Shown: one piece after another, positions 21,729-38,498 of the stretch
How positions within the stretch are numbered: position 1 is the stretch's first letter
Layout of the letters: the number at the start of each line of letters is the position of its first letter
NCBI GenBank assembly: GCA_048938105.1
Contig: JBHLMN010000004.1
Location: 160,001 to 224,000 of the forward strand
Direction: 5' to 3'
DNA from: Promethearchaeota archaeon
Lineage (GTDB): Archaea > Asgardarchaeota > Heimdallarchaeia > Hodarchaeales > Hodarchaeaceae
DNA: 64,000 nt
The notes under the pieces: generated by a model
The model's input: only the letters and a program-made list of their open reading frames with translations
The model's database searches: none
What the model was told of the DNA's origin: nothing
Program-made: the position numbers and the translations under genes

Positions 21729-22877
21729 TCATTTAAACCTAGGTCTTAATTTTGAACGGATTTTAATATCCAAAATGAAACCAGTTAATACAAAGATAAC
21801 AAAGTACATCTCAAATCCTGGACTTGAATTTGAAGTTTTTATATCATCTTCAAACGATATCTCGATAATTTCAAGGACATCGTCCCTATCAGTCATAAAG
21901 GCAATGTTATCACTTACAAAAACGTCGGTAGCATGTCCACTGCCATCATGGTACTGGCCAATTTTAGCAGGATTAGAAGGATCGCTAATATCAAGAACTT
22001 CCAATCCTTCATGAAAATTTGTAACATATGCTAAATCCCCTTCAACAAATGTTTCCATTGTAAAACCCCCATCATGGAACTCAGAAACTTGTGTTATATT
22101 AGTAGGGTCATGCACATCGAGAATTCTTAACTCCCCAGATTCATCATGATGATCAGCAGCAAAGAGATAATTATTGTAGACAAAAGGATAAATAAAATCT
22201 ATTTCATAACGTATATAGTTCCCTAATTCGAATATATTACATGGATTACTAATATTCAGAACTCTTATTCCAGTATATTGAGTACAGTGATCAGTTATAT
22301 ACATTAAATTGTCCTTGATAAAGAAATCATGAAAATATCTTCCAATAGGTTTATACTGGCACAATTCATTAGGATGTGCGGGATCACTTACATTAAGAAC
22401 CTCTAATCCATCTGCATTATCCGCAAGAAATGCTATATCCCCTAAAACTTGAACGTGAGTTGCATATCCTCCATCATTATGACTTCCGATTTTTTTAGGA
22501 TTGGTAGGATCACTAACATTAATAATCTGTAATCCTTCCTCTTTAGCTGTAAGATAAGCGGTTTCTGTTGTAACAAATAAGGAATTTGGGAGTCCATCTA
22601 TGAAATAAGAACTCAGCTTTTTAGGATTTGAAAGATCAGAGATGTCAATTATTACAAGACCACCAGGATTGTCATCGGTTGTATCTACAACATAAGCGAG
22701 ATCACCTATCACTTGAACATCGTAGGCTTCACCATTCGTGTCAATTTGCCCCACTTCTTTCAGTATAATTTTTTGGTGAAATGCTACTGGAAAAATGATT
22801 TTTCCACAAGTAATTGTAAATAGACAGATAATCCCAATTGTAGGAATAACTTGTTTTCTGTTAAGTCTTATCCTCAC
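21729..22877 (-). CDS. LVIVD-repeat surface protein with PGF-CTERM-like anchor
   Basis: GLVIIDISD.SNP repeats; signal peptide; C-terminal SPGFE + TM + basic tail. Confidence 0.88.
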   Translation of the reverse strand: MRIRLNRKQVIPTIGIICLFTITCGKIIFPVAFHQKIILKEVGQIDTNGEAYDVQVIGDLAYVVDTTDDNPGGLVIIDISDLSNPKKLSSYFIDGLPNSLFVTTETAYLTAKEEGLQIINVSDPTNPKKIGSHNDGGYATHVQVLGDIAFLADNADGLEVLNVSDPAHPNELCQYKPIGRYFHDFFIKDNLMYITDHCTQYTGIRVLNISNPCNIFELGNYIRYEIDFIYPFVYNNYLFAADHHDESGELRILDVHDPTNITQVSEFHDGGFTMETFVEGDLAYVTNFHEGLEVLDISDPSNPAKIGQYHDGSGHATDVFVSDNIAFMTDRDDVLEIIEISFEDDIKTSNSSPGFEMYFVIFVLTGFILDIKIRSKLRPRFK

Positions 22878-23498: not shown

Positions 23499-24119
23499 AT
23501 GAGCTCTATCTCCGGTTCCATTCCTCCTAGGACTTTTCAAATTCTTCAAGATGAAACTCGATTAGCAATCATTATCTGTTTGCAAATTTACCATCAATTA
23601 ACAGTCAAACAGCTAAGTGATTTCCTTCATAAAGGAAAGACAACAATCACTCATCACTTACGAAAATTGGATGAAGCTGGAATCGTCGGCTGGAGAGAAA
23701 GAGAAGAAGATAGGAAAAAATACAAAACGAGATATTATTTTATTAGTGATGACAATCTAAAAAGAGGGGTTGGAATCACAAAGAAAATAAGCGAATTTCA
23801 TGATAAAGATTCAATTTTTCGAATAATGAAAACAGAAGCCGCAATAACCTATAATCTTATGGAATGGATGATTGATTTTACTGAAAAGCAGGAAGCTGAC
23901 CTAAAATCGTTGAAAGAACGCGGTAACTCTTTCATTCGAACTTTTATCCTCACACCCGAAACACTTCCTATCTATCAAGAAGGTATGCAAAAAATTGCGG
24001 AAATGATAGAGTTAGAAAATAAAAAATCTCAAGATTCCCCTGTTACCCATATTAGTTCCCATGTTTTTGTACAGATTAAAGATATCTTAGAATGGAAACA
24101 AAAACTCAAAAAAGAATGA
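23499..24119 (+). CDS. ArsR-like winged-helix regulator
   Basis: ETRLAII..L....LTVKQLS..L.KGKTTITHHLRKL.EAGIV. Confidence 0.85.
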   Translation: MSSISGSIPPRTFQILQDETRLAIIICLQIYHQLTVKQLSDFLHKGKTTITHHLRKLDEAGIVGWREREEDRKKYKTRYYFISDDNLKRGVGITKKISEFHDKDSIFRIMKTEAAITYNLMEWMIDFTEKQEADLKSLKERGNSFIRTFILTPETLPIYQEGMQKIAEMIELENKKSQDSPVTHISSHVFVQIKDILEWKQKLKKE

Positions 24120-25240
24120 CCCGGAAAATATTGAATATGAGAAAATTCAACATTGTTGAGATTGAAAACAGCTATTTAAATTTCTTTACACCAGCTATGA
24201 TTATTGCGGCTGGAATATTCTTACTCTACTTATTTAATTGGCCCTTGTCCTTTCTCCAATGGATGATATACGAATCTAATGCAAATATCAATCTAGATAT
24301 AATGAGCGCAATAATTGCCAATATTACAGGGATTGCAATCTGTTTTATTACTTATTTTATCTTCATTCCCCGTTTAAAAGTTCAAGATGCTAAATATAAC
24401 AAAATTAATTCAATAAGCATTATTACAGTTTTTATTGTCTTCCTAATTATCATCTTTTTTAGGTTGATAATGACAAATCTATTCGAATCCTTAGACATCA
24501 CCATTTATTTGGTTCCTCCATGGTTTATGGATTCCTACAATCTCTTATTTAATCCAATGATTTGGATTTTATTTTTATCTTATCAGTTTTTTATTCTCCC
24601 CATATATACAGAGCTACTTTATCGCAGAACAATTATTCCTCTTTTAGAAGATCGCGGTTTGTCCCCTTTTCTTGCAGTAATCCTCTCAAGTTTAGGATTC
24701 TGTTTATTATTTTTACCTCAGTATTTTCAACCAACTAATTATCTTGGGACATTATATTGGTTCATTTCAACTTTCTTATTTGGGTTAGGTACAGGTTTGA
24801 TCTATATACTTACACGGAATATCCTACTCTCAATCCTTTATACGATAATCTATTATGTCTTTCGTTTAAGTGGGGAGATAGGTACTTTTTTCCAAGATAA
24901 TTTCTTATTAATGATTCATTCTCTTCTTAGTATAATAATCTTGATAAGTGGTTTCATCCTAGTTATCTATGTTGTTTGGAATTTATATCAGACGAAATCT
25001 ACTGTAACATGGGTACACATCATTAGGACACCTTCAGCCCCAAAAATTACTCGTGGATTGATCGGTTACTTTGCTATTTCGTTGGTATTGGTGAGTATTC
25101 ATTTTATAATATCGAATTTTATTTTAAAATTCCTCTCCTCTGATATGTTATTGATGTTTGCAGCAAACTCGTTTTTTTACCTGATAGCGTTTTCTATTCC
25201 ATTTTGGTTAACCATAACCTCAGAATATGCTCAGTATTAG
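24092..25240 (+). CDS. CPBP (CAAX/Abi) intramembrane protease-like protein, catalytic motifs apparently degenerate
   Basis: Multi-TM protein; PIYTELLYRR (cf. EExxxR), A.ILSSLGF, GLIY..TRNI..SI; the expected His residues are absent. Confidence 0.7.
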   Translation: METKTQKRMTRKILNMRKFNIVEIENSYLNFFTPAMIIAAGIFLLYLFNWPLSFLQWMIYESNANINLDIMSAIIANITGIAICFITYFIFIPRLKVQDAKYNKINSISIITVFIVFLIIIFFRLIMTNLFESLDITIYLVPPWFMDSYNLLFNPMIWILFLSYQFFILPIYTELLYRRTIIPLLEDRGLSPFLAVILSSLGFCLLFLPQYFQPTNYLGTLYWFISTFLFGLGTGLIYILTRNILLSILYTIIYYVFRLSGEIGTFFQDNFLLMIHSLLSIIILISGFILVIYVVWNLYQTKSTVTWVHIIRTPSAPKITRGLIGYFAISLVLVSIHFIISNFILKFLSSDMLLMFAANSFFYLIAFSIPFWLTITSEYAQY

Positions 25241-26418: not shown

Positions 26419-27087
26419 ATGTCAAACAAACAATTCAAAGATGCAATAACTTTTTCCCAGCCTTTAATGAAAGAAATAACTGATAATGATTCGATTAAGC
26501 TCTTTAAGGATAAAAATCTTTCATCTGTCATAGAATTCTTACGAACTCATAAAGGTCCAATGACTGTAACAGAACTAGAAAACGCTTTCAAGAATACTGG
26601 GAAAAAAAAATCAGATAAAACAATTTATCGGTATCTCAAAACACTTGAAGAAGCTAATTTGGTGATACAGGCTGGAAAAAGGGTTTTCAAAACTGATAAG
26701 AAAAAATTAAAGACTCAAACTCTCTATATGAGAACTGCAAAAATCTTTTTCCCAATCATGGACCTTGAAGAGAAAGAAGAACTTTCAGAGGAAGAACAAC
26801 AACAAGAAGAGAAAATGATTGAAGCTATTGGTATTTCAATTGGTAAATATATGAATGTTAAACTTATATCAACAGATTGCTTGAAAGAATTTTTGAAAAA
26901 ATTCTACAGGGAGGGAGCTTCATTACCAAGGACAATTATACAAAATGCAAGTGATGAGATAACAGATTTATTAACGGATCTAGATTGGAAGTTTATTGAA
27001 AGCGCTGTAAAAACTATCAATTTTCTGGTAATTTTGAGCGATAAAACTAATTGGCAGATAGAACTAGCTAATTGTTTCCATGATTAG
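26419..27087 (+). CDS. Winged-helix (ArsR-like) transcriptional regulator
   Basis: GPMTV.EL...KSDKTIYRYLKTLEEANLV..AG...LY.RTAKIF. Confidence 0.82.
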   Translation: MSNKQFKDAITFSQPLMKEITDNDSIKLFKDKNLSSVIEFLRTHKGPMTVTELENAFKNTGKKKSDKTIYRYLKTLEEANLVIQAGKRVFKTDKKKLKTQTLYMRTAKIFFPIMDLEEKEELSEEEQQQEEKMIEAIGISIGKYMNVKLISTDCLKEFLKKFYREGASLPRTIIQNASDEITDLLTDLDWKFIESAVKTINFLVILSDKTNWQIELANCFHD

Positions 27088-27105: not shown

Positions 27106-28491
27106 CTAATAGATGAATGGTACACCTATATCTTCGAGTTCTTTGCGTACATTTTTATAAAGAGTTTTGTATTCTGTTGTAGGTTTGACCTTTTGAACAT
27201 CATAACATTCTCGGAAATTTTTCCCAAGGGGAGCATCTGGGATATTCTCTTCATAGGTCTTTAAGAGAGTGAGTGTAAGCTCATTTGCATCACCTCGAGA
27301 GATTTTTTTCATTGCTGCTCCAGTACCAACTTCAGCAGCCATACGGGCTTCCATTGGGGTTGCATAATTTTTGACTTTGTTCTTAGCAACGGCCATTTCC
27401 CATAAATTTGCACCAGAGATGACAGAGACAAGCCCATGAGTTGCTGCTTCTCGCAAGACCATTTCAGTACACGGACCTGCTGCAGCAAATCCATTAGACA
27501 TTGACACGAAATTACTATTGCGAGCCAAAGCTTGATAGGTTGTTGAAATAACCCAGAGAAGTTGACGCATAGTATTACTAGTATGCTTCAAATGGAATGG
27601 GAAGTAATTCATGAAGTGAGCTTGGTTCACTAATAATCCCATCAAATGATATGCCACTCCCACGACTGCAGTTCCTTCAGGTCCACCAGCATAACCACCC
27701 ATAATAGGCCCAGCCAATGCTCCGACAAAACAACCATAAGTATGAAAGTGTACCATTTTATTTAGGAGAGAATTATCCACTTTGAGTTCTGTTATACTAG
27801 CTACAAAACGTCCATCTGTCAATCTTTCCCCCCACTCGGTATTACTAGCGGCAATTTGAGCAGCGTCCGATTCTGCTGTTCCAACACTTTTAAGAAAGAT
27901 ACCAGGACGACCGACTCGTCTGGCAGCTTCTCGGAACATCATCGCATGAGCGACCGATCCTTTCACTTCTGAAGGAAACCCAGAGCGTATGGGCATGCCC
28001 TCGATTTCAGGCAGGATTGGAGCACAGACTCCATCAGCTAGAGGCTCCTGTAAGTAAGCCATACTCATTGGGAGGAAGAGATCTTCATCACAAGTTATAT
28101 CGGGTGAAAATAGACAGAAAGGCCTTTGTGAATCTTCAATTTGTCGACTGGAGATTTCTTTAGAATCCCGTCCGAAACCTAGCGTGAATCTCCCAGGGAA
28201 GTTTCCAAAGGCTTCCTTTATTTCATCTTCAGTGAACAGAATCCTACGATGAGTATCAGTCACCAAAGTTCCAACTTCGAGATATAAATCCATAGCAGCT
28301 TTCCAAAGGCTATCAGCTAGAGTATTGTCTTGTGGAACGGGTATTGCAGGATCGAAACAGATATCATATTCCTTAACAACCCTTCGAAGTTCAGGAACAA
28401 GAAGTTTGAGATCAAAATCCCCTTCTAAGCAAATAGGACCATTTTGTGCTCTGTCCAACACTTCATTGATACGCCATGGCGGTGTTACCAT
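27106..28491 (-). CDS. mtmB: Monomethylamine methyltransferase MtmB-family protein lacking pyrrolysine
   Basis: RA..GP...E..FD, D...P.D..LAD, GRPG, ELK.D, P.MGGYAGGPEG, AGPCTEM, TPMEAR, G..F.ECYD; 461 aa with no in-frame TAG. The symbol denotes the family only; the substrate is uncertain. Confidence 0.88.
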   Translation of the reverse strand: MVTPPWRINEVLDRAQNGPICLEGDFDLKLLVPELRRVVKEYDICFDPAIPVPQDNTLADSLWKAAMDLYLEVGTLVTDTHRRILFTEDEIKEAFGNFPGRFTLGFGRDSKEISSRQIEDSQRPFCLFSPDITCDEDLFLPMSMAYLQEPLADGVCAPILPEIEGMPIRSGFPSEVKGSVAHAMMFREAARRVGRPGIFLKSVGTAESDAAQIAASNTEWGERLTDGRFVASITELKVDNSLLNKMVHFHTYGCFVGALAGPIMGGYAGGPEGTAVVGVAYHLMGLLVNQAHFMNYFPFHLKHTSNTMRQLLWVISTTYQALARNSNFVSMSNGFAAAGPCTEMVLREAATHGLVSVISGANLWEMAVAKNKVKNYATPMEARMAAEVGTGAAMKKISRGDANELTLTLLKTYEENIPDAPLGKNFRECYDVQKVKPTTEYKTLYKNVRKELEDIGVPFIY

Positions 28492-29157
28492 TTACTTCGA
28501 CCTTTTTTCGAGTAATTTAGTAGCAAGTTTTGCTGCTCCAACTGCGGTTTCTGCCCATCCATCGGCGCCTATTTCTTCTTGCCAAGTTACAGTCGTTGGG
28601 GCTCCCCCAATGATGACCAAATAATTATCCCGTTTACCCAAAGCTTCAAGTAGTTCAAGAACTTCTTTTTGTGACATCATAGTGGTGGTCATTAATGCAG
28701 AGAGGGCGATTATATCTGCCTTCACTTCATCAGCTTTCTCAATGAACTGCATTGAAGGGACATCTTTTCCTAAGTCAAAGACTTCAAATCCCGAGACTTC
28801 TAGCATAATTTTTACAATATTTTTCCCAATTTCGTGAATATCCCCATGAACGGTACCGAGTACAACTTTACCTTTCGTTTCCAACCGTTCTGTAGTGGAT
28901 TTCTTGATGTGTTCTGTCAAGACTGAAGTGGCTGCCTGCATTGCTTCTGCAGCTCCCATTAGTTCGGGGAGAAAGATATCCATTCGATCAAATTTATCCC
29001 CTATTTCTTCCATTGTAGGGCTTAAGACATCATCAATTACTGTAAGTGGATCAACTTGATGCACTGTTATGAGCTCATTAGCGATTTCTTTGGCTTTGTC
29101 AGGCTCGTATTCCTCTAAAGATCTCTTTAACGCTACAAAAAGGCTTTCCATGGTCAT
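28492..29157 (-). CDS. Methyltransferase cognate corrinoid protein (MtmC/MtbC/MttC family)
   Basis: FLPELM.AA, GTV.GDIHEIGKNIV (DxHxxG), SALMTTT, IIGGAP. Its stop codon abuts the mtmB ATG. Confidence 0.93.
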   Translation of the reverse strand: MTMESLFVALKRSLEEYEPDKAKEIANELITVHQVDPLTVIDDVLSPTMEEIGDKFDRMDIFLPELMGAAEAMQAATSVLTEHIKKSTTERLETKGKVVLGTVHGDIHEIGKNIVKIMLEVSGFEVFDLGKDVPSMQFIEKADEVKADIIALSALMTTTMMSQKEVLELLEALGKRDNYLVIIGGAPTTVTWQEEIGADGWAETAVGAAKLATKLLEKRSK

Positions 29158-29336: not shown

Positions 29337-30170
29337 ATGCAATATTGGGATTACCATACGCATAATTCTCTTTGTAATCATGCCATTGGAACAATTAATG
29401 ACTATATTGCGTCAGCTATTAAGAAGGACTTAGCGGAGATTGGAATTAGTGACCATTTTCCAATGGATCTGCTCCCAAAGCATTTTCATATTTATGCTAT
29501 GCCATTAAACGAGTTTCCAAACTATATCAATGAAATCAAAAGACTTCAAGTGAAGTACATCTCACAAATTAAAGTTAAAATTGCTTCAGAAGTTGATTTC
29601 TTCCCAATGGCATTTAATAGTTATAAACGAATTATTAAACCCTATTTAGATGATTTCGATTATATTATAGGATCTGTTCATGCGGTTCCATGGCAGGGTA
29701 TTGACGCGATACCAATTGACGAAGTACAAGCTATTCCTATGATTAAGGAACTAGGTGTTGATAGAGTATATCTAAAATATTATGATACTCTCATGAAAAT
29801 GATTAAAACTAATTTTTACCAAATTGTAGGGCATTTTGATCTCCCAAAAAAGTATGGATTATTTCCTCAAGATTCTGACAAAATATGGCAGAAAGTATTA
29901 CAAGTTGTAGATCAGATTGAAAAAAGTGGGATGGTTGTAGAAATTAATACCTCTGGGTTGTATAAAAAAGCGAAACAAACTTATCCCAGTCCAAACATCA
30001 TTAAGGAGTTAATTCAGCGCAGGATTCCAATCACTCTTGGATCAGATGCTCATTCTCCTCAGTATGTTGGATTTAAATTTAAAGAGATTCTTGTGAAAGT
30101 CAAGAAGTGGGGATTGTCAAGTTTATGTCAGTTCTCAAATTACGAGAATAACCTTATTCCTCTAGATTGA
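29337..30170 (+). CDS. PHP-family histidinol-phosphatase (HisJ/HisK-like)
   Basis: DYHTH..LC.HA, GISDH, DYIIGSVH, GHFDL, EINTSG, GSDAH. Confidence 0.9.
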   Translation: MQYWDYHTHNSLCNHAIGTINDYIASAIKKDLAEIGISDHFPMDLLPKHFHIYAMPLNEFPNYINEIKRLQVKYISQIKVKIASEVDFFPMAFNSYKRIIKPYLDDFDYIIGSVHAVPWQGIDAIPIDEVQAIPMIKELGVDRVYLKYYDTLMKMIKTNFYQIVGHFDLPKKYGLFPQDSDKIWQKVLQVVDQIEKSGMVVEINTSGLYKKAKQTYPSPNIIKELIQRRIPITLGSDAHSPQYVGFKFKEILVKVKKWGLSSLCQFSNYENNLIPLD

Positions 30171-30738: not shown

Positions 30739-31743
30739 ATGACTGAATTCAATCTCGAATCCATTCCAAGAATTCCTCTTTGCATATTACCGACGCCTAT
30801 AATGCCTCTCAAACGATTAACTGCGTATCTGGGTGGAGCTAATATTTTTATCAAAAGAGATGATCTTACAGGTGTTGCTTTTGGGGGGAATAAGAATAGA
30901 AAGCTAGAATTCTTATTAGCCGAAGCAAAGGAACGTAAAGCAGATGTTATTGTTACAGAAGGAGCTTTGCAATCAAATCACTGTCTTCAAACAGCAGCGT
31001 GCGCAGCAAAACTCGGTTTTGAATGTGAATTAGTATTATCAGGCGAAGATCTAAATTATATCACAGGAAATCTTCTTTTAGATCAGATTCTTGATGTGAA
31101 AATACATCGAGTTAAAGATAGTGTGAAGAGAAAAGCTCTCATGAAAGAGATAGAAGAGAAGTTAATAAATCAAGATAAGAGACCATATATCATACCAACA
31201 GGTGGTTCTACTATAATTGGTGCATTAGGATATTTAAACTGTATATTGGAAATTATGAAACAAGTTCGAAATTTAAGTATTGTAATGGATTACTTTATCC
31301 ATGCAACTGGTAGTGGAGGTACGCATTCGGGTGTTCTTTTAGGAAAAGAGCTCTATTGTCCTGAATTGGAAATTTTTGGGATTAATGTTGGAGAACCAGA
31401 AGGGGAACTAAATAAAATTGTACAAAGGATTATTCGGAAGTTTATTGAAGAATGGGGTTTGAAATTAACGATTAAAAAGGATTCGATTAAGGTTCTTGAT
31501 GATTATTATGGGGAGGGGTATGGAATCCCAAGTCAAGAAATGATTGATACTGTAAAACTGATTGCAAAGCTGGAGGGAATTTTTCTTGACCCTGTTTATA
31601 CTGGAAAAGCCATGGTAGGATTGGTTGACCTTGTGAAGACTAGAGTAATCCCAAAAGACAGTAATGTAATTTTTCTTCATTCAGGAGGAGGCCCCTCAAT
31701 ATTTAATTATGCTGATGTTTTCAAAAAGAATCAAGAGAGATAA
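30739..31743 (+). CDS. D-cysteine desulfhydrase family PLP enzyme
   Basis: KRDD..G...GGNK.RKLE, QSNH, GSGGT, DPVYTGKA and HSGG (desulfhydrase-type rather than ACC-deaminase YEGK/HLGG). Confidence 0.9.
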   Translation: MTEFNLESIPRIPLCILPTPIMPLKRLTAYLGGANIFIKRDDLTGVAFGGNKNRKLEFLLAEAKERKADVIVTEGALQSNHCLQTAACAAKLGFECELVLSGEDLNYITGNLLLDQILDVKIHRVKDSVKRKALMKEIEEKLINQDKRPYIIPTGGSTIIGALGYLNCILEIMKQVRNLSIVMDYFIHATGSGGTHSGVLLGKELYCPELEIFGINVGEPEGELNKIVQRIIRKFIEEWGLKLTIKKDSIKVLDDYYGEGYGIPSQEMIDTVKLIAKLEGIFLDPVYTGKAMVGLVDLVKTRVIPKDSNVIFLHSGGGPSIFNYADVFKKNQER

Positions 31744-31746
31744 AAG

Positions 31747-32877
31747 ATGTTTAAGAACTTTTCATCAGCCCATAAAATAGGTTCATTAGTTATCAAAAAT
31801 AGATTAGTTAGATCAGCTACTTATGAGTGTATGGCAACCGTTGAAGATGGTAGTGTTACACAAGAATTAATATATCTATATAAAACATTAGCCGAAGGAG
31901 GAGTTGGATTGATTATCACAGGGCTCACTTATGTTCACCCCTCTGGTCGTAGTTATCATAATCAGACAGCAATAGATAATGATAGTTTAATTCCAGGATT
32001 GAGGAAGATTGCAGAAACAGTTCATGAATATGGAGATGGATGTAGGATTGCAATTCAATTAGCTCATTCTGGATTTCAATCTTTGTTAGAAAACACAATA
32101 GCGCCATCTGCTGTTCTTGAACAAATGATGAATAACATGCCACGAGAAATGACGGTTAAAGAAATAGAAGAAATTATAGAAGCTTTTGCAAAGTCTGTAT
32201 GGAGAGCAAAAGAAGCAGGATTCGATGCGGTTCAACTCCATGCTGCTCATGGATATTTATTAAGCGAATTTTTGTCACCATTCACGAATAAAAGAACAGA
32301 TGGATATGGTGGTAACACAACAAAACGGATCAAAATCATTGAAGATATTTACAAAAGATCTATTGAATTTGTAGGTAAGGACTTCCCGATTTTGATCAAA
32401 ATGAATGTAGACGATTTTTTAGAAGGAGGAATTGACCTAAAAGAGTCTCAAAAAATAGCAGAAAAACTTTCACGAATAGGATTTGCAGCTATTGAAACTA
32501 GTAGCTGTATGTGGGCCGTTGTATTACGAAATGAAGAGGAAATTGGATTTTCCCCCTCTTTTATTCCGGAAAGTCGAATAAAAATAAACTCTAAGGATAA
32601 AGAGGCTTATCATCGTCCGTATGCAAAAGAAATCAAGAAAGTTATTGGAGCTACTCCATTAATTCTTGTTGGTGGAATTAGATCTCTTGATGTAATTGAG
32701 GAGATCTTGGCTGAGGGAAGTGCCGATTTTATCGCTCTAAGTCGTCCTTTGATTAGGGAGCCCAATCTCCCAAATAAATGGTTAAATGGAACTGGGGGAT
32801 TAACTGCTGAATGTATTTCCTGTAATGGATGTATTGGAGTTGTAGCTCAAGAAGGTGTCCATTGTACTCAAATATAA
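31747..32877 (+). CDS. NADH:flavin oxidoreductase (Old Yellow Enzyme family)
   Basis: NRLVRSAT, AGFDAVQLHAAHGYLLSEFLSP..N.R.D.YGG; C-terminal CISCNGC. Confidence 0.93.
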   Translation: MFKNFSSAHKIGSLVIKNRLVRSATYECMATVEDGSVTQELIYLYKTLAEGGVGLIITGLTYVHPSGRSYHNQTAIDNDSLIPGLRKIAETVHEYGDGCRIAIQLAHSGFQSLLENTIAPSAVLEQMMNNMPREMTVKEIEEIIEAFAKSVWRAKEAGFDAVQLHAAHGYLLSEFLSPFTNKRTDGYGGNTTKRIKIIEDIYKRSIEFVGKDFPILIKMNVDDFLEGGIDLKESQKIAEKLSRIGFAAIETSSCMWAVVLRNEEEIGFSPSFIPESRIKINSKDKEAYHRPYAKEIKKVIGATPLILVGGIRSLDVIEEILAEGSADFIALSRPLIREPNLPNKWLNGTGGLTAECISCNGCIGVVAQEGVHCTQI

Positions 32878-32885
32878 CACCTCAA

Positions 32886-33893
32886 TCATTGATTAAAAGT
32901 ACCGATAGTATCTATTGCTAACTCTGGAGTACAATTGGGGGGTAGAGAAACGACAGGAATATTAGTACCTTGTTGTCGTAGTTCATTATAGCGTGTGATA
33001 ACATACTCAGGGGATCCTACTACTGCAATCCGATCAAGCATATCCCTTGTTACATTTTTAGCGGCAACATCACGATCCCCTGCTTGAAATGCCGCTCTAA
33101 TTTTATTTGCTTCCGTCTCAAAACCAAACCTTTTCACAATTTCAAAATAAAATGTCCCCATTCCACCTATGTAATAAGCTAAATTCCTCTGAATAAGGTA
33201 TTTTGCTTTTTCAGATTCTGAAGCACAAGTAGGAATGTAGGGAGCAATTATAATCTCTTTCCCAAGTTCTGGTTTTCGTTTGGAAAATCCTTTTCTTAAA
33301 TCTTCCTTCGTGCTAGGAATTTCAGTGAAGGAAGTCCAGATCGGGAGCCATCCATCTGCTAATTCGCCTGTAATCTGAACATTTTTTCTACCCATTGCTG
33401 CGAGGAATAATGGTATATCAAGAGGTGTGTTAAAACCGCGTATTTTGAATCGTTTCAAAGAATAAATCTTTCCAGAGTAATTTACACGTTCCCCTAGTAG
33501 AATTAAACGCAATATCTCTAAGTACTCACGAGTCCGTTGCAGGGGAGAAAATTGATAATAATTTATACCATGCCAATCTTGAACGACTATAGGGCCACTT
33601 AATCCTAATCCTAAAATAAATCGTCCTTCTGTAAGTTCATATAAGCTCGCTGCTGTTTGAGCCAATGTAGCAGGAGTACGGGAATACAGATTTACAATAC
33701 CTGTTCCTAGAAGAAGCTCAGAAGTGTAATGTGACATGGCTGCTACTTGAGTAAAAGCATCATGCCCCCAGGCTTCTGGAATAAACAAATGGGTGAAATT
33801 TGAATTATCGAGGAGGGATATCAAATTATGACACAAAGAAGGTGGGAGAAAATCATAGGACAAAGTGAATCCTAGTTTTTTTTGAGTCTTCAT
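32886..33893 (-). CDS. Luciferase-like (LLM) oxidoreductase, probably F420-dependent
   Basis: PEAWG.DAF, LGTGIVN.YSRTP, GRFILGLG.S, ELADGW. Confidence 0.9.
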   Translation of the reverse strand: MKTQKKLGFTLSYDFLPPSLCHNLISLLDNSNFTHLFIPEAWGHDAFTQVAAMSHYTSELLLGTGIVNLYSRTPATLAQTAASLYELTEGRFILGLGLSGPIVVQDWHGINYYQFSPLQRTREYLEILRLILLGERVNYSGKIYSLKRFKIRGFNTPLDIPLFLAAMGRKNVQITGELADGWLPIWTSFTEIPSTKEDLRKGFSKRKPELGKEIIIAPYIPTCASESEKAKYLIQRNLAYYIGGMGTFYFEIVKRFGFETEANKIRAAFQAGDRDVAAKNVTRDMLDRIAVVGSPEYVITRYNELRQQGTNIPVVSLPPNCTPELAIDTIGTFNQ

Positions 33894-34064: not shown

Positions 34065-37000
34065 TTGATATATAAAATGCAACATAATTCTTTCATTGAA
34101 AAACAACGGGAATTAAAAATGCAGTATCATGCAGTTATTGATGCGATGGCTGAACCAATCCACATTGTTAATAAAAATCTGGAGATCCTTTTTATAAACA
34201 AAGCCTTTAAACGTTGGGTTAGGAACTTAGGATTAGAATTAGATATAATTGGTCAAAAATTGTTTGACCTTTATCCTTTTTTACCTGATAAAATTCAGGA
34301 TGAATATCATCAAATCTTTACCTCTGGGAAATCTCTTATTACCGAAGAAACTCAAAAAGTTAGAAATGTAGAGGTATCAACACAAATCGAAAAAGATCCT
34401 ATCTTCAGTGAGGGTGAAGTTAAATGGGTTGTAACTATTTATCGCAACATTACTGAGCATAAACAGATGGAGAAGTCTATAGAAGAGACTGAAGAGAAAT
34501 TACAGCTGTTTATGGACTCCACAATCGATGCTTTCTCTTTATGGGATTCAGATTTGAATTTAATTTCAACAAATAAGGCTGCAATGCGGATGATTCCACA
34601 AGAAATTAGGGAGAAAGGTGTAATAGGTGCAAATCTGGTAGAATTTGATTTTACTAGAGCAAAGGGAACATATAGCAAGTATATGAACGTGATAAAGACG
34701 GGAATACCTTATGTTGTTGAAAATTCTGTTCCTCATCCAATATTTGGAGATAAATATTTCAATATTAAGGCATTCAAAGTAGGTAGTGGGATGGGAATGA
34801 TTATCAGGGATATTACGGAACAAAAAAGAGCGGAAGAAGAAATAAGGAGGAGCGAAGAAAAATTCCGTAGGCTTACTGAGAATATCTTCGATGTAGTATT
34901 AGAAGCAAACTCCGATGGAAAACTTATATATATCAGCCCAGAAGTATTTAATCTTCTTGGTTACCGGCCTAATGAAATAATAGGAATACAAGGCCTTAAT
35001 TTTATCCACCCTGATGATTTAGAAAAAGCTACTAAGGCTATGGCTAAAACTGCAAATCTTAAAGATAGGATTGAAGTTGAGTACAGAGCGCAACATAAAG
35101 ATGGCCATTATGTGCCTATTTCTGGGGCTTTAAGGAGGATTCAAGAGGGTGATGATTTCAAACTGATTGGGGTATTTAGAGACATTACTGAACACAAAAA
35201 AACTGAATTCGAATTGAAACAAAGTAAAACAATTACTGATAACTTAAACGAGGCACTCCTTCTGTTCGATATGGATGGATTAGCCTCATTTGCAAATCCA
35301 ACTTATGAAAAGATCACGGGATATAAAAGCAGTGAATTAATAGGAAAAAGTGGGATTGAGATTGCGAAAAAGACTGTAGTACCACATGAAGTAGACAAGA
35401 TCGTAGAGACTTTTGGAAAAGCAGTTAAAGGAGAAGAGTTACCACCCCTATCAACCTATTTAAAGAATAAAAATGGCAAAATAACGCCAATAGACTTTAC
35501 TGTGTCTTTTGTTAGGGATGACCAAGGTAATGCTATTCAAATAGTTGCGGTTATTAGAGATATCACAGAACAAAAACAAGCAGAGGAGAAATTACGAAGT
35601 TTCGTGGATGCTGCAATCGATCCCTTCCTTCTTTTTGATTCAGATTTAAATATTATTGACATAAACGAAACTGCATTAAAGGGCCTAGGAGTAAACAGGG
35701 AGGATGTACTAGGAATGGCTATACTTGACATATCGCCTGATCTTAAAGAGACAGGCCGATATAATAGATATATGGAGGTTATGATGACAGGAAAACCCCT
35801 TGTCATACAGGATCTTGTACCATCTCCCAAATTTGGCGAAATACATGTTGAATTGAAGGCGTTCAAAGTGGGTGATGGACTAGGACTGATTACCAGAGAC
35901 ATAACTGAGAATAGAAGAGCTGAAGAAGCATTAAGGGAGAGTGAAGAGAAGTTCAGATTGTTGTCTGAACAAAGTATGCTTGGGATTGTAATCCTCCAAG
36001 ATGGGTTGATAAAATATGTCAATAATGCTTTAGCGGAAATGATAGAGATTACTCCTGAAGAGATGTTAAAATGGAAAGCAGATGAATGGGTGTCAGCTAT
36101 GCATCCAGATGACCGTTCAATTGCAATTCAACAAGCACGAAAAAAACAAATGGGGGAAATAGATGTCGTTATACACTCTTCCTATCGTCTTATAACAAAG
36201 ACTGGAAAAACAAAATGGGTAGAGAATTACTCAAAAACAATAACCTATAAGGGAAAAACAGCTGATTTTATCACCCTAATTGACATTACTGAGCGAATAA
36301 AAGCAGAGGAAGCGTTACGGGAGAGTGAAGAACGATTAAGAGCATTCATGGACTCTGCAACTGATGCTTTCTCTCTTTGGGATTCAAAACTCAACTTAAT
36401 TGATATCAATAAAGCTGGCATGGAGATAATTCCCGTAGAGATCAAGAAAACGGGTGTAATAGGAAGGAATTTTACAGAATTCGGTTCTATGACTAAGGAA
36501 ATAGTAAATTATAATAGATATATAGAAGTTATAAGGACTGGTAAACCCTTAATTATGGAGAATATTGTTACTGGTACTCTATTTGGTAATATTCATGTAA
36601 TTATAAAAGCATTTAAGGTTGGTAAGGGGATGGGAATGATTGTAACAGACATTACTAAACACAAAGAGGCAGAAAAAGCCCTGAGAGAGAGCGAAAAGAA
36701 ATATCGAACGATTTTAGAGAGTATCGAAGACGGTTATTATGAGGTTGATTTAGCTGGAAATTTGACCTTTTTCAATGATTCATTATGCAAATTACTTGGA
36801 TATTCAAAAAATGAATTAATTGGTATGAATTATAGAGCTTACATGGATGATGAGACTGGCAATAAAGTATATCATACATTTAATACAGTTTATGAATCGG
36901 GGCGACCAACTAAGGCTACTGATTGGGAGATTATTAGAAAAGATAGAACTAAGAGGTTTAATGAAGCTTCTATCTCTCTAATATTAAAATCTTCAGGAGA

Positions 37001-38498
37001 ACCTGTAGGATTTCGGGGTGTAGTTCGTGATATAACAAAACGCATGGAAATGGAAGAAGCATTACGAGAGAGTGAGGTGAAATTTCGAAATATTATTGAA
37101 TCCATTCCCATGGGTATGCATATGTATCAAATAGAGGAAGATGGAAATCTAATATTTATTGGCGCTAACCATGCTGCTGATGAAATCCTAGGGATAAATC
37201 ACGAACAGTTAAAAGGGAAAACAATTGAAGATGCGTTCCCTTCCTCTATGGAAACTGAAATCCCTGATCACTACCGTGCTGCTGCCACGAAAGGGATAAT
37301 ATGGACAAGTGACGAAATAACTTATGAAGACGAACGGATTAAAGGTGCCTATGAGGTTTGTGCTTTCCAGACGTCACCAGGAATGATGGTGGCCTCATTC
37401 CTTGATATTACTGAACGTAAAAAAACTGAAGAATCGCTGAAAGAGAGCGAGCGGAAATATAGGACACTTATAACAACAATGACTGATGGTATTGTGGTTA
37501 CTGACATATTTAACAGAATAACATTAGTAAATCCTGCTTTAGAAAAGATGCTTGGATTTAATGAAGATGAGATGTTGGATCATTTAGTGATTGAATTTTT
37601 AGACCCTGATTCAATCGAAATCTTCAAAGAAAAAAGCAAGCAACGACATTCGGGCCTGGTTCCCTCTGAAGAATATGAACTTGTATTTATTAATAAAAAT
37701 GGAGATAAAGTAACCACACGAGTTGCAGCTAAAGTTTTAATGGTGGGATCTCAAATCAGTGGTTCTTTTGCAGTGATTTCAGATATAACTAAGGAACGTG
37801 AATTAGAACAAAGACGCGCTAGTTTCATGTCGATGACTGCTCATGAATTACGTACGCCTACAACAATCATTCGGGGTTATGCAGAGCTTCTTGAAGCCTT
37901 TTTTAGTGATCTTGGATTAGAACAGAATGAAAAATTCTTTATTCCTCTCCAAAAAATCATTAAGAATGTCCAGCGTCTCGAAAGGTTGATTTCAGATGTA
38001 AGAGACATTATGAGGATTGATAGAGGTGTTTTTCAGTTACAAAAAGAACCAGTCATTATTAATGAATTGCTAGATGAATTCCTCAGTTCATATAAAGTAA
38101 TATTAAAAGATCAATTAGAATATTCCATATCATATCTCGATTCTCCTGTTCAAATTGAAAGTGATCCAGTACGTCTACTTCAAGTATTCGGTAACTTAAT
38201 GCAGAATGCTATAGATCACACTTCAAAAGATAATCGTCAGATAACTGTCAGCTCTACGATCACTTCTGAAGATATAATAATTAAATTTTCCGATAATGGC
38301 GCTGGTATTGAACCTACATATTTAGAAAAGATATTTGAGCCATTTTTATCTATTCCAACCGAATTTACTGTTCAAGGTACAGGTGTTGGCTTATATTTAT
38401 CAAGATTTATTATACAGGCCCATAATGGGATTCTATTAGCCTCCAGTAAAGGAAAAGGATTTGGTGCAACCTTCACTGTAAGATTACCAAGAACTTAA
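34065..38498 (+). CDS. Soluble multi-PAS sensor histidine kinase (10 PAS/PAC repeats)
   Basis: Ten (D/N)IT PAC termini; H-box AHELRTP, N-box NLMQNA, G1 DNGAGI, G2 GTGVGL; no TM segment. Confidence 0.93.
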   Translation: MIYKMQHNSFIEKQRELKMQYHAVIDAMAEPIHIVNKNLEILFINKAFKRWVRNLGLELDIIGQKLFDLYPFLPDKIQDEYHQIFTSGKSLITEETQKVRNVEVSTQIEKDPIFSEGEVKWVVTIYRNITEHKQMEKSIEETEEKLQLFMDSTIDAFSLWDSDLNLISTNKAAMRMIPQEIREKGVIGANLVEFDFTRAKGTYSKYMNVIKTGIPYVVENSVPHPIFGDKYFNIKAFKVGSGMGMIIRDITEQKRAEEEIRRSEEKFRRLTENIFDVVLEANSDGKLIYISPEVFNLLGYRPNEIIGIQGLNFIHPDDLEKATKAMAKTANLKDRIEVEYRAQHKDGHYVPISGALRRIQEGDDFKLIGVFRDITEHKKTEFELKQSKTITDNLNEALLLFDMDGLASFANPTYEKITGYKSSELIGKSGIEIAKKTVVPHEVDKIVETFGKAVKGEELPPLSTYLKNKNGKITPIDFTVSFVRDDQGNAIQIVAVIRDITEQKQAEEKLRSFVDAAIDPFLLFDSDLNIIDINETALKGLGVNREDVLGMAILDISPDLKETGRYNRYMEVMMTGKPLVIQDLVPSPKFGEIHVELKAFKVGDGLGLITRDITENRRAEEALRESEEKFRLLSEQSMLGIVILQDGLIKYVNNALAEMIEITPEEMLKWKADEWVSAMHPDDRSIAIQQARKKQMGEIDVVIHSSYRLITKTGKTKWVENYSKTITYKGKTADFITLIDITERIKAEEALRESEERLRAFMDSATDAFSLWDSKLNLIDINKAGMEIIPVEIKKTGVIGRNFTEFGSMTKEIVNYNRYIEVIRTGKPLIMENIVTGTLFGNIHVIIKAFKVGKGMGMIVTDITKHKEAEKALRESEKKYRTILESIEDGYYEVDLAGNLTFFNDSLCKLLGYSKNELIGMNYRAYMDDETGNKVYHTFNTVYESGRPTKATDWEIIRKDRTKRFNEASISLILKSSGEPVGFRGVVRDITKRMEMEEALRESEVKFRNIIESIPMGMHMYQIEEDGNLIFIGANHAADEILGINHEQLKGKTIEDAFPSSMETEIPDHYRAAATKGIIWTSDEITYEDERIKGAYEVCAFQTSPGMMVASFLDITERKKTEESLKESERKYRTLITTMTDGIVVTDIFNRITLVNPALEKMLGFNEDEMLDHLVIEFLDPDSIEIFKEKSKQRHSGLVPSEEYELVFINKNGDKVTTRVAAKVLMVGSQISGSFAVISDITKERELEQRRASFMSMTAHELRTPTTIIRGYAELLEAFFSDLGLEQNEKFFIPLQKIIKNVQRLERLISDVRDIMRIDRGVFQLQKEPVIINELLDEFLSSYKVILKDQLEYSISYLDSPVQIESDPVRLLQVFGNLMQNAIDHTSKDNRQITVSSTITSEDIIIKFSDNGAGIEPTYLEKIFEPFLSIPTEFTVQGTGVGLYLSRFIIQAHNGILLASSKGKGFGATFTVRLPRT

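Follow-up and report, generated by a model that had tools for sequence, protein, structure and literature searches.

A pyrrolysine-free MtmB homologue and its corrinoid protein in a Hodarchaeales genome: a probable methyl-transfer pair for a donor other than monomethylamine

A 64,000-nucleotide stretch of a Promethearchaeota archaeon genome (family Hodarchaeaceae; contig JBHLMN010000004.1, positions 160,001 to 224,000; the whole stretch is referred to below as the window) contains two adjacent minus-strand genes at positions 27,106 to 29,157, the first encoding a predicted corrinoid protein (P0002) and the second a homologue of the monomethylamine methyltransferase MtmB without pyrrolysine (Pyl; P0001). 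MtmB and the corrinoid protein MtmC are a textbook pair. We propose that P0001 and P0002 probably form the methyl-loading half of a corrinoid methyl-transfer system that takes its methyl group from a donor other than monomethylamine. A sequence-only reading of the window had already noted a corrinoid gene with a DxHxxG motif abutting a 461-aa MtmB homologue with no in-frame TAG, and the open reading frames, the Pfam matches and the motif itself all agree with that description.

The methyltransferase (MT1) gene occupies positions 27106..28491 and the gene of the 221-aa corrinoid protein positions 28492..29157, so that the stop codon of the latter directly abuts the start of the former with a 0-nt gap. 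P0001 (461 aa) matches the Pfam MtmB family PF05369 with 325.7 bits (E 6e-97, cut-off 25) across residues 8-456 and profile positions 3-449 of 450, and HMMER aligns it with MtmB in the PDB at E 2e-73. An AlphaFold2 model (predicted local distance difference test score, pLDDT, 96.6) matches the three Methanosarcina barkeri MtmB structures 1L2Q, 1NTH and 1TV2 over 461 columns in Foldseek (template modeling [TM] score 0.95, root-mean-square deviation 1.8-1.9 Å, 32% identity), a match at the level of the global fold. P0002 has B12-binding and B12-binding_2 domains, and a regular-expression match places the DxHxxG cobalt-ligand motif at residues 106-111 (DIHEIG; 28825..28842, minus strand). Its scores against the methylamine and glycine-betaine corrinoid-protein models (TIGR02370, 202.7 bits; MtgC, 203 bits) both lie just under the models' own cut-offs. 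By sequence and model, P0001 is thus a full-length member of the MtmB superfamily with a predicted TIM-barrel fold and a DxHxxG corrinoid partner. Its homologues at 80-88% identity carry the public labels Promethearchaeota, Hodarchaeales or Heimdallarchaeota, and in public records P0001 itself is annotated as a monomethylamine methyltransferase.

The residues on which monomethylamine activation depends are not those of P0001. In a gap-free HMMER alignment with 1L2Q the segment GRPGIFL-K201 lies on GRPGMGV-X202, placing Lys201 (codon AAA, 27889..27891, minus strand) at the position of the UAG-encoded Pyl202 of true MtmB; counting by hand in the same alignment, Phe229 (27805..27807, minus strand) falls on Glu229 and Leu259 (27715..27717, minus strand) on Glu259. 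Thirteen genuine TAG-bearing mtmB genes, from Methanolobus, Methanomassiliicoccales, Desulfosporosinus, Desulfobacteraceae and other bacteria, give the same register: the TAG falls in the Lys201 column in 13/13, and all 13 have Glu in the 229 and 259 columns. The P0001 gene has no internal in-frame TAG, its terminal stop being the only one in frame. Gap-free alignments and the global fold match thus identify Lys201 as the equivalent of Pyl202, and at the sequence level P0001 is without the residue traits of true MtmB (EC 2.1.1.248), Pyl, Glu229 and Glu259 all being replaced. The sequence-only reading had put AAA at the Pyl position and Phe and Leu in place of the two glutamates, and these assignments stand. 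Compared with M. barkeri MtmB1/MtmC, the P0001/P0002 pair shares the Pfam family, fold, length, GRPG motif before the key site and adjacent DxHxxG corrinoid gene, but differs in lacking Pyl202 and the two glutamates, in its distant clade, and in a host genome with no PylS or PylD match.

Neither Pyl nor either of the glutamates beside it is retained (Lys or Gln at 201, Phe at 229, Leu at 259 in the relatives described below), and the donor is therefore probably not monomethylamine. The sequence-only reading proposed a B12 methyl-transfer system for a non-methylamine donor. The pairing of a corrinoid protein with a Pyl-free MtmB, and the loss of the activating residues, sustain that proposal as far as a donor other than monomethylamine is concerned. 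The precedents of MtqB and of the MttB enzymes without Pyl make N-methylated compounds, for example quaternary or secondary amines, the likeliest class of donor. The same reading knew of no substrate for any Pyl-free MtmB, a statement that has since been overtaken: Kashyap et al. (PMC13044021; Front Microbiol, March 2026) showed that tetramethylammonium and choline are demethylated by MtqB, an MtmB homologue without Pyl from Methanococcoides methylutens Q3c, whose activity on monomethylamine is weak (11 nmol/min/mg). This is direct precedent for a Pyl-free MtmB homologue acting as an MT1 on other N-methyl donors. Members of the Pyl-free MttB superfamily offer a parallel, with MtgB acting on glycine betaine, MtpB on proline betaine and MtcB on carnitine (named in PMC13044021). 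They belong to a different family, and P0001 has no PF06253 match and a TM score of only ~0.5 to the MttB and MtgB structures. In these enzymes, which work with a corrinoid partner and are activated by RamA-type proteins, the use of different N-methyl donors accompanies the loss or absence of Pyl, and we propose that the same logic applies here.

The residue at the Pyl position is variable even among the nearest relatives of P0001. Within its clade the column holds Lys, Gln, Thr, Cys, Val, Ala or His; the Asgard subclade has Lys201, and sister groups at 62-72% identity have Gln, with Gln-type members labelled Bathyarchaeia and [Eubacterium] cellulosolvens in public records. Codon 201 in 64 genes of the clade is AAA in 17, AAG in 7, CAG in 27, CAA in 13 and TAG in none, and the use of both synonymous codons for Lys as well as for Gln points to selection on the residue. 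Lys201 requires at least three changes on the clade tree, Lys and Gln having interchanged at least three times, which argues that Lys201 is neither a relic of pyrrolysine nor an essential catalytic lysine. Leu259 is constant across the clade; Phe229 is constant in the Lys- and Gln-type members, and other clade members have Leu, Met or Ala there. Across the wider family the Pyl column is highly variable (Lys, Gln, Leu, Val, Ile, Ala, Gly, Thr, His, Met and more).

Only two sites distinguish the Lys from the Gln subclade as fixed differences, K201Q and Y376R, a pattern that resembles the relocation of a basic residue between two positions of the pocket, 201 and 376. We rejected this interpretation: independent Lys201 rows keep Arg376, and there are members with Thr/Gly or Val/Tyr that have neither basic residue. 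This pattern was the only pointer to the anionic donor suggested in the sequence-only reading, and without it that suggestion is unsupported. Four short hits (P0155, P0192, P0197 and P0268) were considered as split, TAG-interrupted relatives, but their ends do not fall at the Pyl site and they are fragments.

Pyl-free relatives of P0001 are numerous. Among 1.84 billion cluster representatives searched, 967 are relatives, and of the best 150 of these ~120 are full length (roughly 450-470 aa) and stop-free. Non-Pyl MtmBs have been known for years and are present across Asgard archaea (PMC13044021), and Sun et al. reported an MtmB without an in-frame UAG in another Asgard class, the sole in-frame UAG reported being in MtbB (bioRxiv 10.1101/2021.02.19.431964). 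An uncharacterised bacterial member, Ga0180325_111810, showed the strongest induction of all proteins when 'Ca. Formimonas warabiya' DCMF was grown on dichloromethane, and Holland et al., who reported it, propose a role outside monomethylamine demethylation (PMC9768040); like P0001 it is a Pyl-free homologue ~30% identical to true MtmB, and it differs in its bacterial origin and in its induction on dichloromethane. The Pyl-free MtmB homologues are thus a large, recognised and mostly unstudied group, of which P0001 is a further member.

P0001 is 31-34% identical to the Pyl-MtmBs, and two trees place it far from them. One half of a FastTree phylogeny of 182 rows contains the Pyl clade (support 100) together with the MtqB clade (99); the window protein is in the other half, within a 25-row clade (100) nested in a 46-row clade (100). 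An IQ-TREE phylogeny (LG+C20+F+G4, 74 rows) again recovers the window clade (100), inside a set (99) that contains no Pyl or MtqB row. Scoring the trees by the residue at the Pyl site, as the sequence-only reading had advised, shows the window clade as separate, with Lys/Gln switching inside it. The non-Pyl proteins that do group with the Pyl clade (P0244, P0269 and P0210) have Ile, Leu or Gly at the site and none has Lys. The idea that the lysine might represent a pre- or post-Pyl state is not upheld, given the distance between the clades in both trees, the three or more origins of Lys and the residues of these Pyl-clade neighbours. One of the latter, the metagenomic P0244 cluster, is of separate interest: it is full-length and stop-free, with Ile at the Pyl site, Asp229 and Glu259, and it nests in the Pyl clade beside Methanomassiliicoccales Pyl-MtmBs (support 96), which suggests that Pyl was genuinely lost here from a true MtmB.

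MtqB is the likely working model for a Pyl-free member acting on a donor other than monomethylamine, and like P0001 it is encoded directly after its own corrinoid gene, the adjacent genes encoding MtqC (216 aa) and MtqB (459 aa; PMC13044021 supplement). A gene pair of exactly these sizes and order is present in four genomes (loci L137-L140) among 151 sampled Methanosarcinaceae genomes, and the L137-L139 proteins are 84% and 77% identical to one another, compared with 87% and 78% for the strains in the paper. From these gene sizes and mutual identities we take L137-L140 to be MtqB orthologues. P0001 is 30-32% identical to them, no closer than to the Pyl-MtmBs, and P0002 is 41-43% identical to MtqC and 53-57% identical to the corrinoid proteins beside Gln-type relatives. 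The MtqB clade (support 99 in FastTree and 100 in IQ-TREE) stands apart from the window clade (100 in both). At positions 201, 229 and 259 the four orthologues have Val, Ile or Gln, then Leu or Thr, then Cys, versus Lys, Phe and Leu in P0001, and their pocket stretches differ from those of P0001. The MtqB ligand site is described as containing a conserved Met and Cys with aromatic residues, with no residue numbers given (PMC13044021); column 259 could hold that Cys, although the mapping is a guess. Identity and tree placement together indicate that P0001 is not an MtqB orthologue.

Two other proteins or groups came up in this comparison. P0178, chosen as an MtqB candidate for its Met/Cys pattern, falls outside the MtqB clade and was discarded. 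A further class of Pyl-free MtmB occurs at Methanosarcinaceae loci L102, L103, L107, L115, L116, L119, L124 and L129; these proteins have Met at the Pyl site (Leu in L124), keep Glu229 and score 480-546 bits on the Pfam model. The copies at L102, L103, L116 and L129 lie beside Pyl-mtmB genes, and the class is distinct from MtqB.

In the genome (5.85 Mb in 65 contigs, 99% complete, 7% contamination) PylS and PylD have no match above cut-off (PylB and PylC were not searched), and no MtbB or MtrH was found there. ARAGORN reports an intron-bearing tRNA-Pyl(CUA) on another contig (C11:135861-135970; L266 2863-2969), but the canonical 37/38 intron position gives the anticodon CUG and the acceptor stem resembles that of tRNA-Gln; Rfam confirms a tRNA (48.8 bits), which is best read as tRNA-Gln(CUG), and there is no credible tRNA-Pyl. 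ARAGORN finds only 15-20 tRNAs in the whole genome. The window's contig has no match to URO-D, the domain of the second methyltransferases (MT2), or to RACo/RamA, in keeping with the sequence-only reading, which had reported neither an MT2 nor a RamA gene in the window; the genome-wide search it recommended finds candidates elsewhere. Contig C31 encodes a full-length RACo/RamA-type activase (633 aa) in which the Fer2, linker, middle and ASKHA domains are all present, and four distant MtaA-like URO-D proteins are encoded on other contigs. The genome also has four Pyl-free MttB homologues. It has no pterin-binding methyltransferase, its sole Pterin_bind match being dihydropteroate synthase (DHPS).

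Only one other corrinoid protein of the P0002 type is present in the genome, on contig C49 and 45% identical to P0002. It is encoded on one strand with a homocysteine S-methyltransferase (295 aa) and a Pyl-free MttB (480 aa; C49:200713-205116, L014), and by its gene content this cluster resembles a methionine synthase in split form that would carry methyl groups from an MttB-type donor to methionine. Two further MtmB paralogues lie on contig C20. One is of the His type and lies beside a major facilitator superfamily (MFS) transporter; the other is of the Lys type and 82% identical to P0001. In this region (C20:82000-101999, L143) a nitroreductase-family gene, the Lys-type MtmB and then AdaA, Ogt and PIN-domain genes face the His-type MtmB; AdaA, which has Ada_Zn_binding and AraC helix-turn-helix domains, and Ogt are on the same strand as the Lys-type gene. 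The same locus has a Roadblock/LC7 gene directly before a Ras-family small GTPase gene (L143 6064-7102), a eukaryote-like pairing typical of Asgard genomes.

The observations above cover the family and fold of P0001, the equivalence of its key site, its partner gene, its place in the trees and the accessory genes; the direction of transfer, the donor class and the acceptor we infer as follows. The 461-aa TIM barrel would bind a small methylated donor as MT1 and hand the methyl group to the Co(I) of P0002, the 221-aa corrinoid protein whose gene lies immediately upstream. The C31 activase could re-reduce corrinoid that has become oxidised, and a second methyltransferase encoded elsewhere would unload the methyl group, the candidates being the four MtaA-like proteins and the homocysteine S-methyltransferase on C49. 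An MtrH-type protein would be the unloading enzyme in a related locus.

The distribution and gene context of relatives add some detail. In a sample of 300 Asgard genomes the Lys-type gene is present in 14/19 other genomes of the window's genus and in 3/5 of one other Asgard family; the other 275 yielded none. The corrinoid partner is strongly conserved, with a gene for it no more than 5 kb from that of the enzyme at 33/36 Gln-type metagenome loci and 8/16 Asgard loci, and gene maps put it directly upstream on the same strand in most loci that hold one. Near the Gln-type genes are also an AIR-synthase-like protein (11 of the 36 loci), a radical SAM/SPASM protein with an unknown 560-aa protein (9), a His-type paralogue (7), MtrH (3) and a HisC-like protein (3). 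RACo is within 5 kb of the enzyme gene in 2/36 of these loci, with 3/36 holding one, and locus L215 presents a full module of RACo, HisC-like aminotransferase, MtmC, MtmB and MtrH. The 16 Asgard loci feature the His-type paralogue in nine, AdaA/Ogt in three, and in three a set termed f20 that consists of a class V pyridoxal phosphate (PLP) enzyme, a cupin, an enolase-superfamily protein and a thiamine diphosphate (ThDP) enzyme. The frequent pairing with a His-type paralogue could reflect two enzymes that remove successive methyl groups from one compound.

Two ideas arising from these contexts were set aside. A link to histidine genes was suggested by the HisJ gene beside the operon and the HisC-like gene of L215, but the HisJ adjacency is absent in the 16 Asgard loci and the HisC-like gene occurs in the 3/36 Gln-type loci already mentioned. 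A sulfonate donor such as N-methyltaurine was prompted by an SsuA/TauA-like binding protein and by the aminotransferase and ThDP enzyme of the f20 set, and is unsupported: the ThDP enzyme is nearest to acetolactate synthase (NCBIfam), scoring 206 bits on the sulfoacetaldehyde acetyltransferase model (cut-off 620), the class V enzyme resembles SufS, and SsuA is matched only weakly (58 bits versus 163).

Several observations weigh against our proposal that P0001 and P0002 load methyl groups from a donor other than monomethylamine. No MT2 gene is adjacent, and the acceptor is therefore a guess; the genome has neither MtrH nor a pterin-binding methyltransferase. The neighbours of related genes are variable, including an SsuA-like ATP-binding cassette (ABC) binding protein, a saccharopine-dehydrogenase-like protein, an M20 deacylase and MFS transporters, so that context beyond the corrinoid gene points to no single substrate. 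Finally, MtqB retains low monomethylamine activity (PMC13044021), and the loss of Pyl is thus not strictly exclusive of this substrate. That P0001 is still a monomethylamine methyltransferase, working without pyrrolysine, would agree with the public annotation as well as with that weak activity, but we regard it as very improbable, as Pyl, Glu229 and Glu259 are invariant in the true mtmB genes and all three are replaced in P0001, and the Pyl-site residue varies even inside its clade. More improbable still, to the point of being nearly discounted, is a Lys201 that is post-translationally modified or bears a cofactor so as to rebuild a pyrrolysine-like electrophile; the lysine is exactly at the Pyl position, but Gln takes its place in close orthologues (62-72% identity) that share the partner gene, the two residues have interchanged repeatedly, and no PylS, PylD or other Pyl-pathway gene was found (PylB and PylC not searched).

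Two further alternatives concern the donor. Choline is common in mangrove and sediment habitats, and mangrove and coastal sediments are thought to emit methyl halides; beyond the likely source sample, a mangrove metagenome and a sediment metagenome are the sequencing runs that contain at least half of the words sampled from the stretch, with no RNA run listed among those sharing its words. These habitats would suit an MtqB-type tetramethylammonium/choline:corrinoid methyltransferase; no other Pyl-free MtmB homologue than MtqB has been characterised, and its gene, too, follows that of its own corrinoid protein (PMC13044021). We nonetheless think it unlikely that P0001 has this activity, in view of the 30-32% identity, the separate supported clades in both trees, and the Cys259 and differing pocket stretches of MtqB. 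Rather less likely again is that P0001 takes methyl groups from electrophilic donors such as methyl halides and is linked to the cell's response to methylating agents. The C20 paralogue is flanked by a nitroreductase-family flavoprotein and AdaA with Ogt, the MtmB, AdaA and Ogt trio is also present in three further genomes of the genus, Phe and Leu stand in place of the acidic pocket residues, and a non-Pyl MtmB-superfamily protein is the one most induced on dichloromethane in 'Ca. Formimonas warabiya' (PMC9768040). The trio loci are all from one genus, however, and hence not independent; AdaA or Ogt is near 0/36 Gln-type loci and the window copy is unlinked to either; some relatives lie beside ABC or MFS transporters, which would be needless for a gas; and the tree rows do not include the Formimonas protein. 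The conjecture that across the Lys/Gln-type clade a hydrophobic Phe/Leu pocket replaces the acid-assisted activation that amines need, the donor being an electrophilic one-carbon compound, seems to us similarly doubtful. If true, the paralogue wired to AdaA/Ogt would belong to an archaeal defence in which methylating agents are removed before DNA damage occurs; the MtmB superfamily would gain a new class of substrate, and the Ada response a new arm.

With only one Pyl-free MtmB having an assigned substrate, each well-defined clade poses the question of which methylated compounds anaerobes use. Knowing the donor of P0001 would reveal a further source of methyl groups in the carbon and nitrogen cycles of sediments, and help to show how corrinoid methyl transfer is used by Asgard archaea without methanogenesis or pyrrolysine. 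What is known of pyrrolysine evolution is unchanged by the finding.

The operon is adjoined by a convergent gene for a winged-helix protein (26419-27087) and a divergent gene for a HisJ-type histidinol phosphatase (29337-30170), and neither adjacency recurs in the 16 Asgard loci. Elsewhere in the window, at 21729-22877 and 23499-25240, there is an LVIVD-repeat beta-propeller gene, followed by an ArsR-type helix-turn-helix gene that overlaps a gene for a Rce1-like CAAX protease. At 30739-33893 and 34065-38498, genes for a PALP (PLP-dependent) enzyme and an Old-Yellow-Enzyme-type flavin reductase are on the same strand with 3 nt between them; a luciferase-like monooxygenase gene faces this pair and is followed by the gene of a 1477-aa histidine kinase with many PAS domains.

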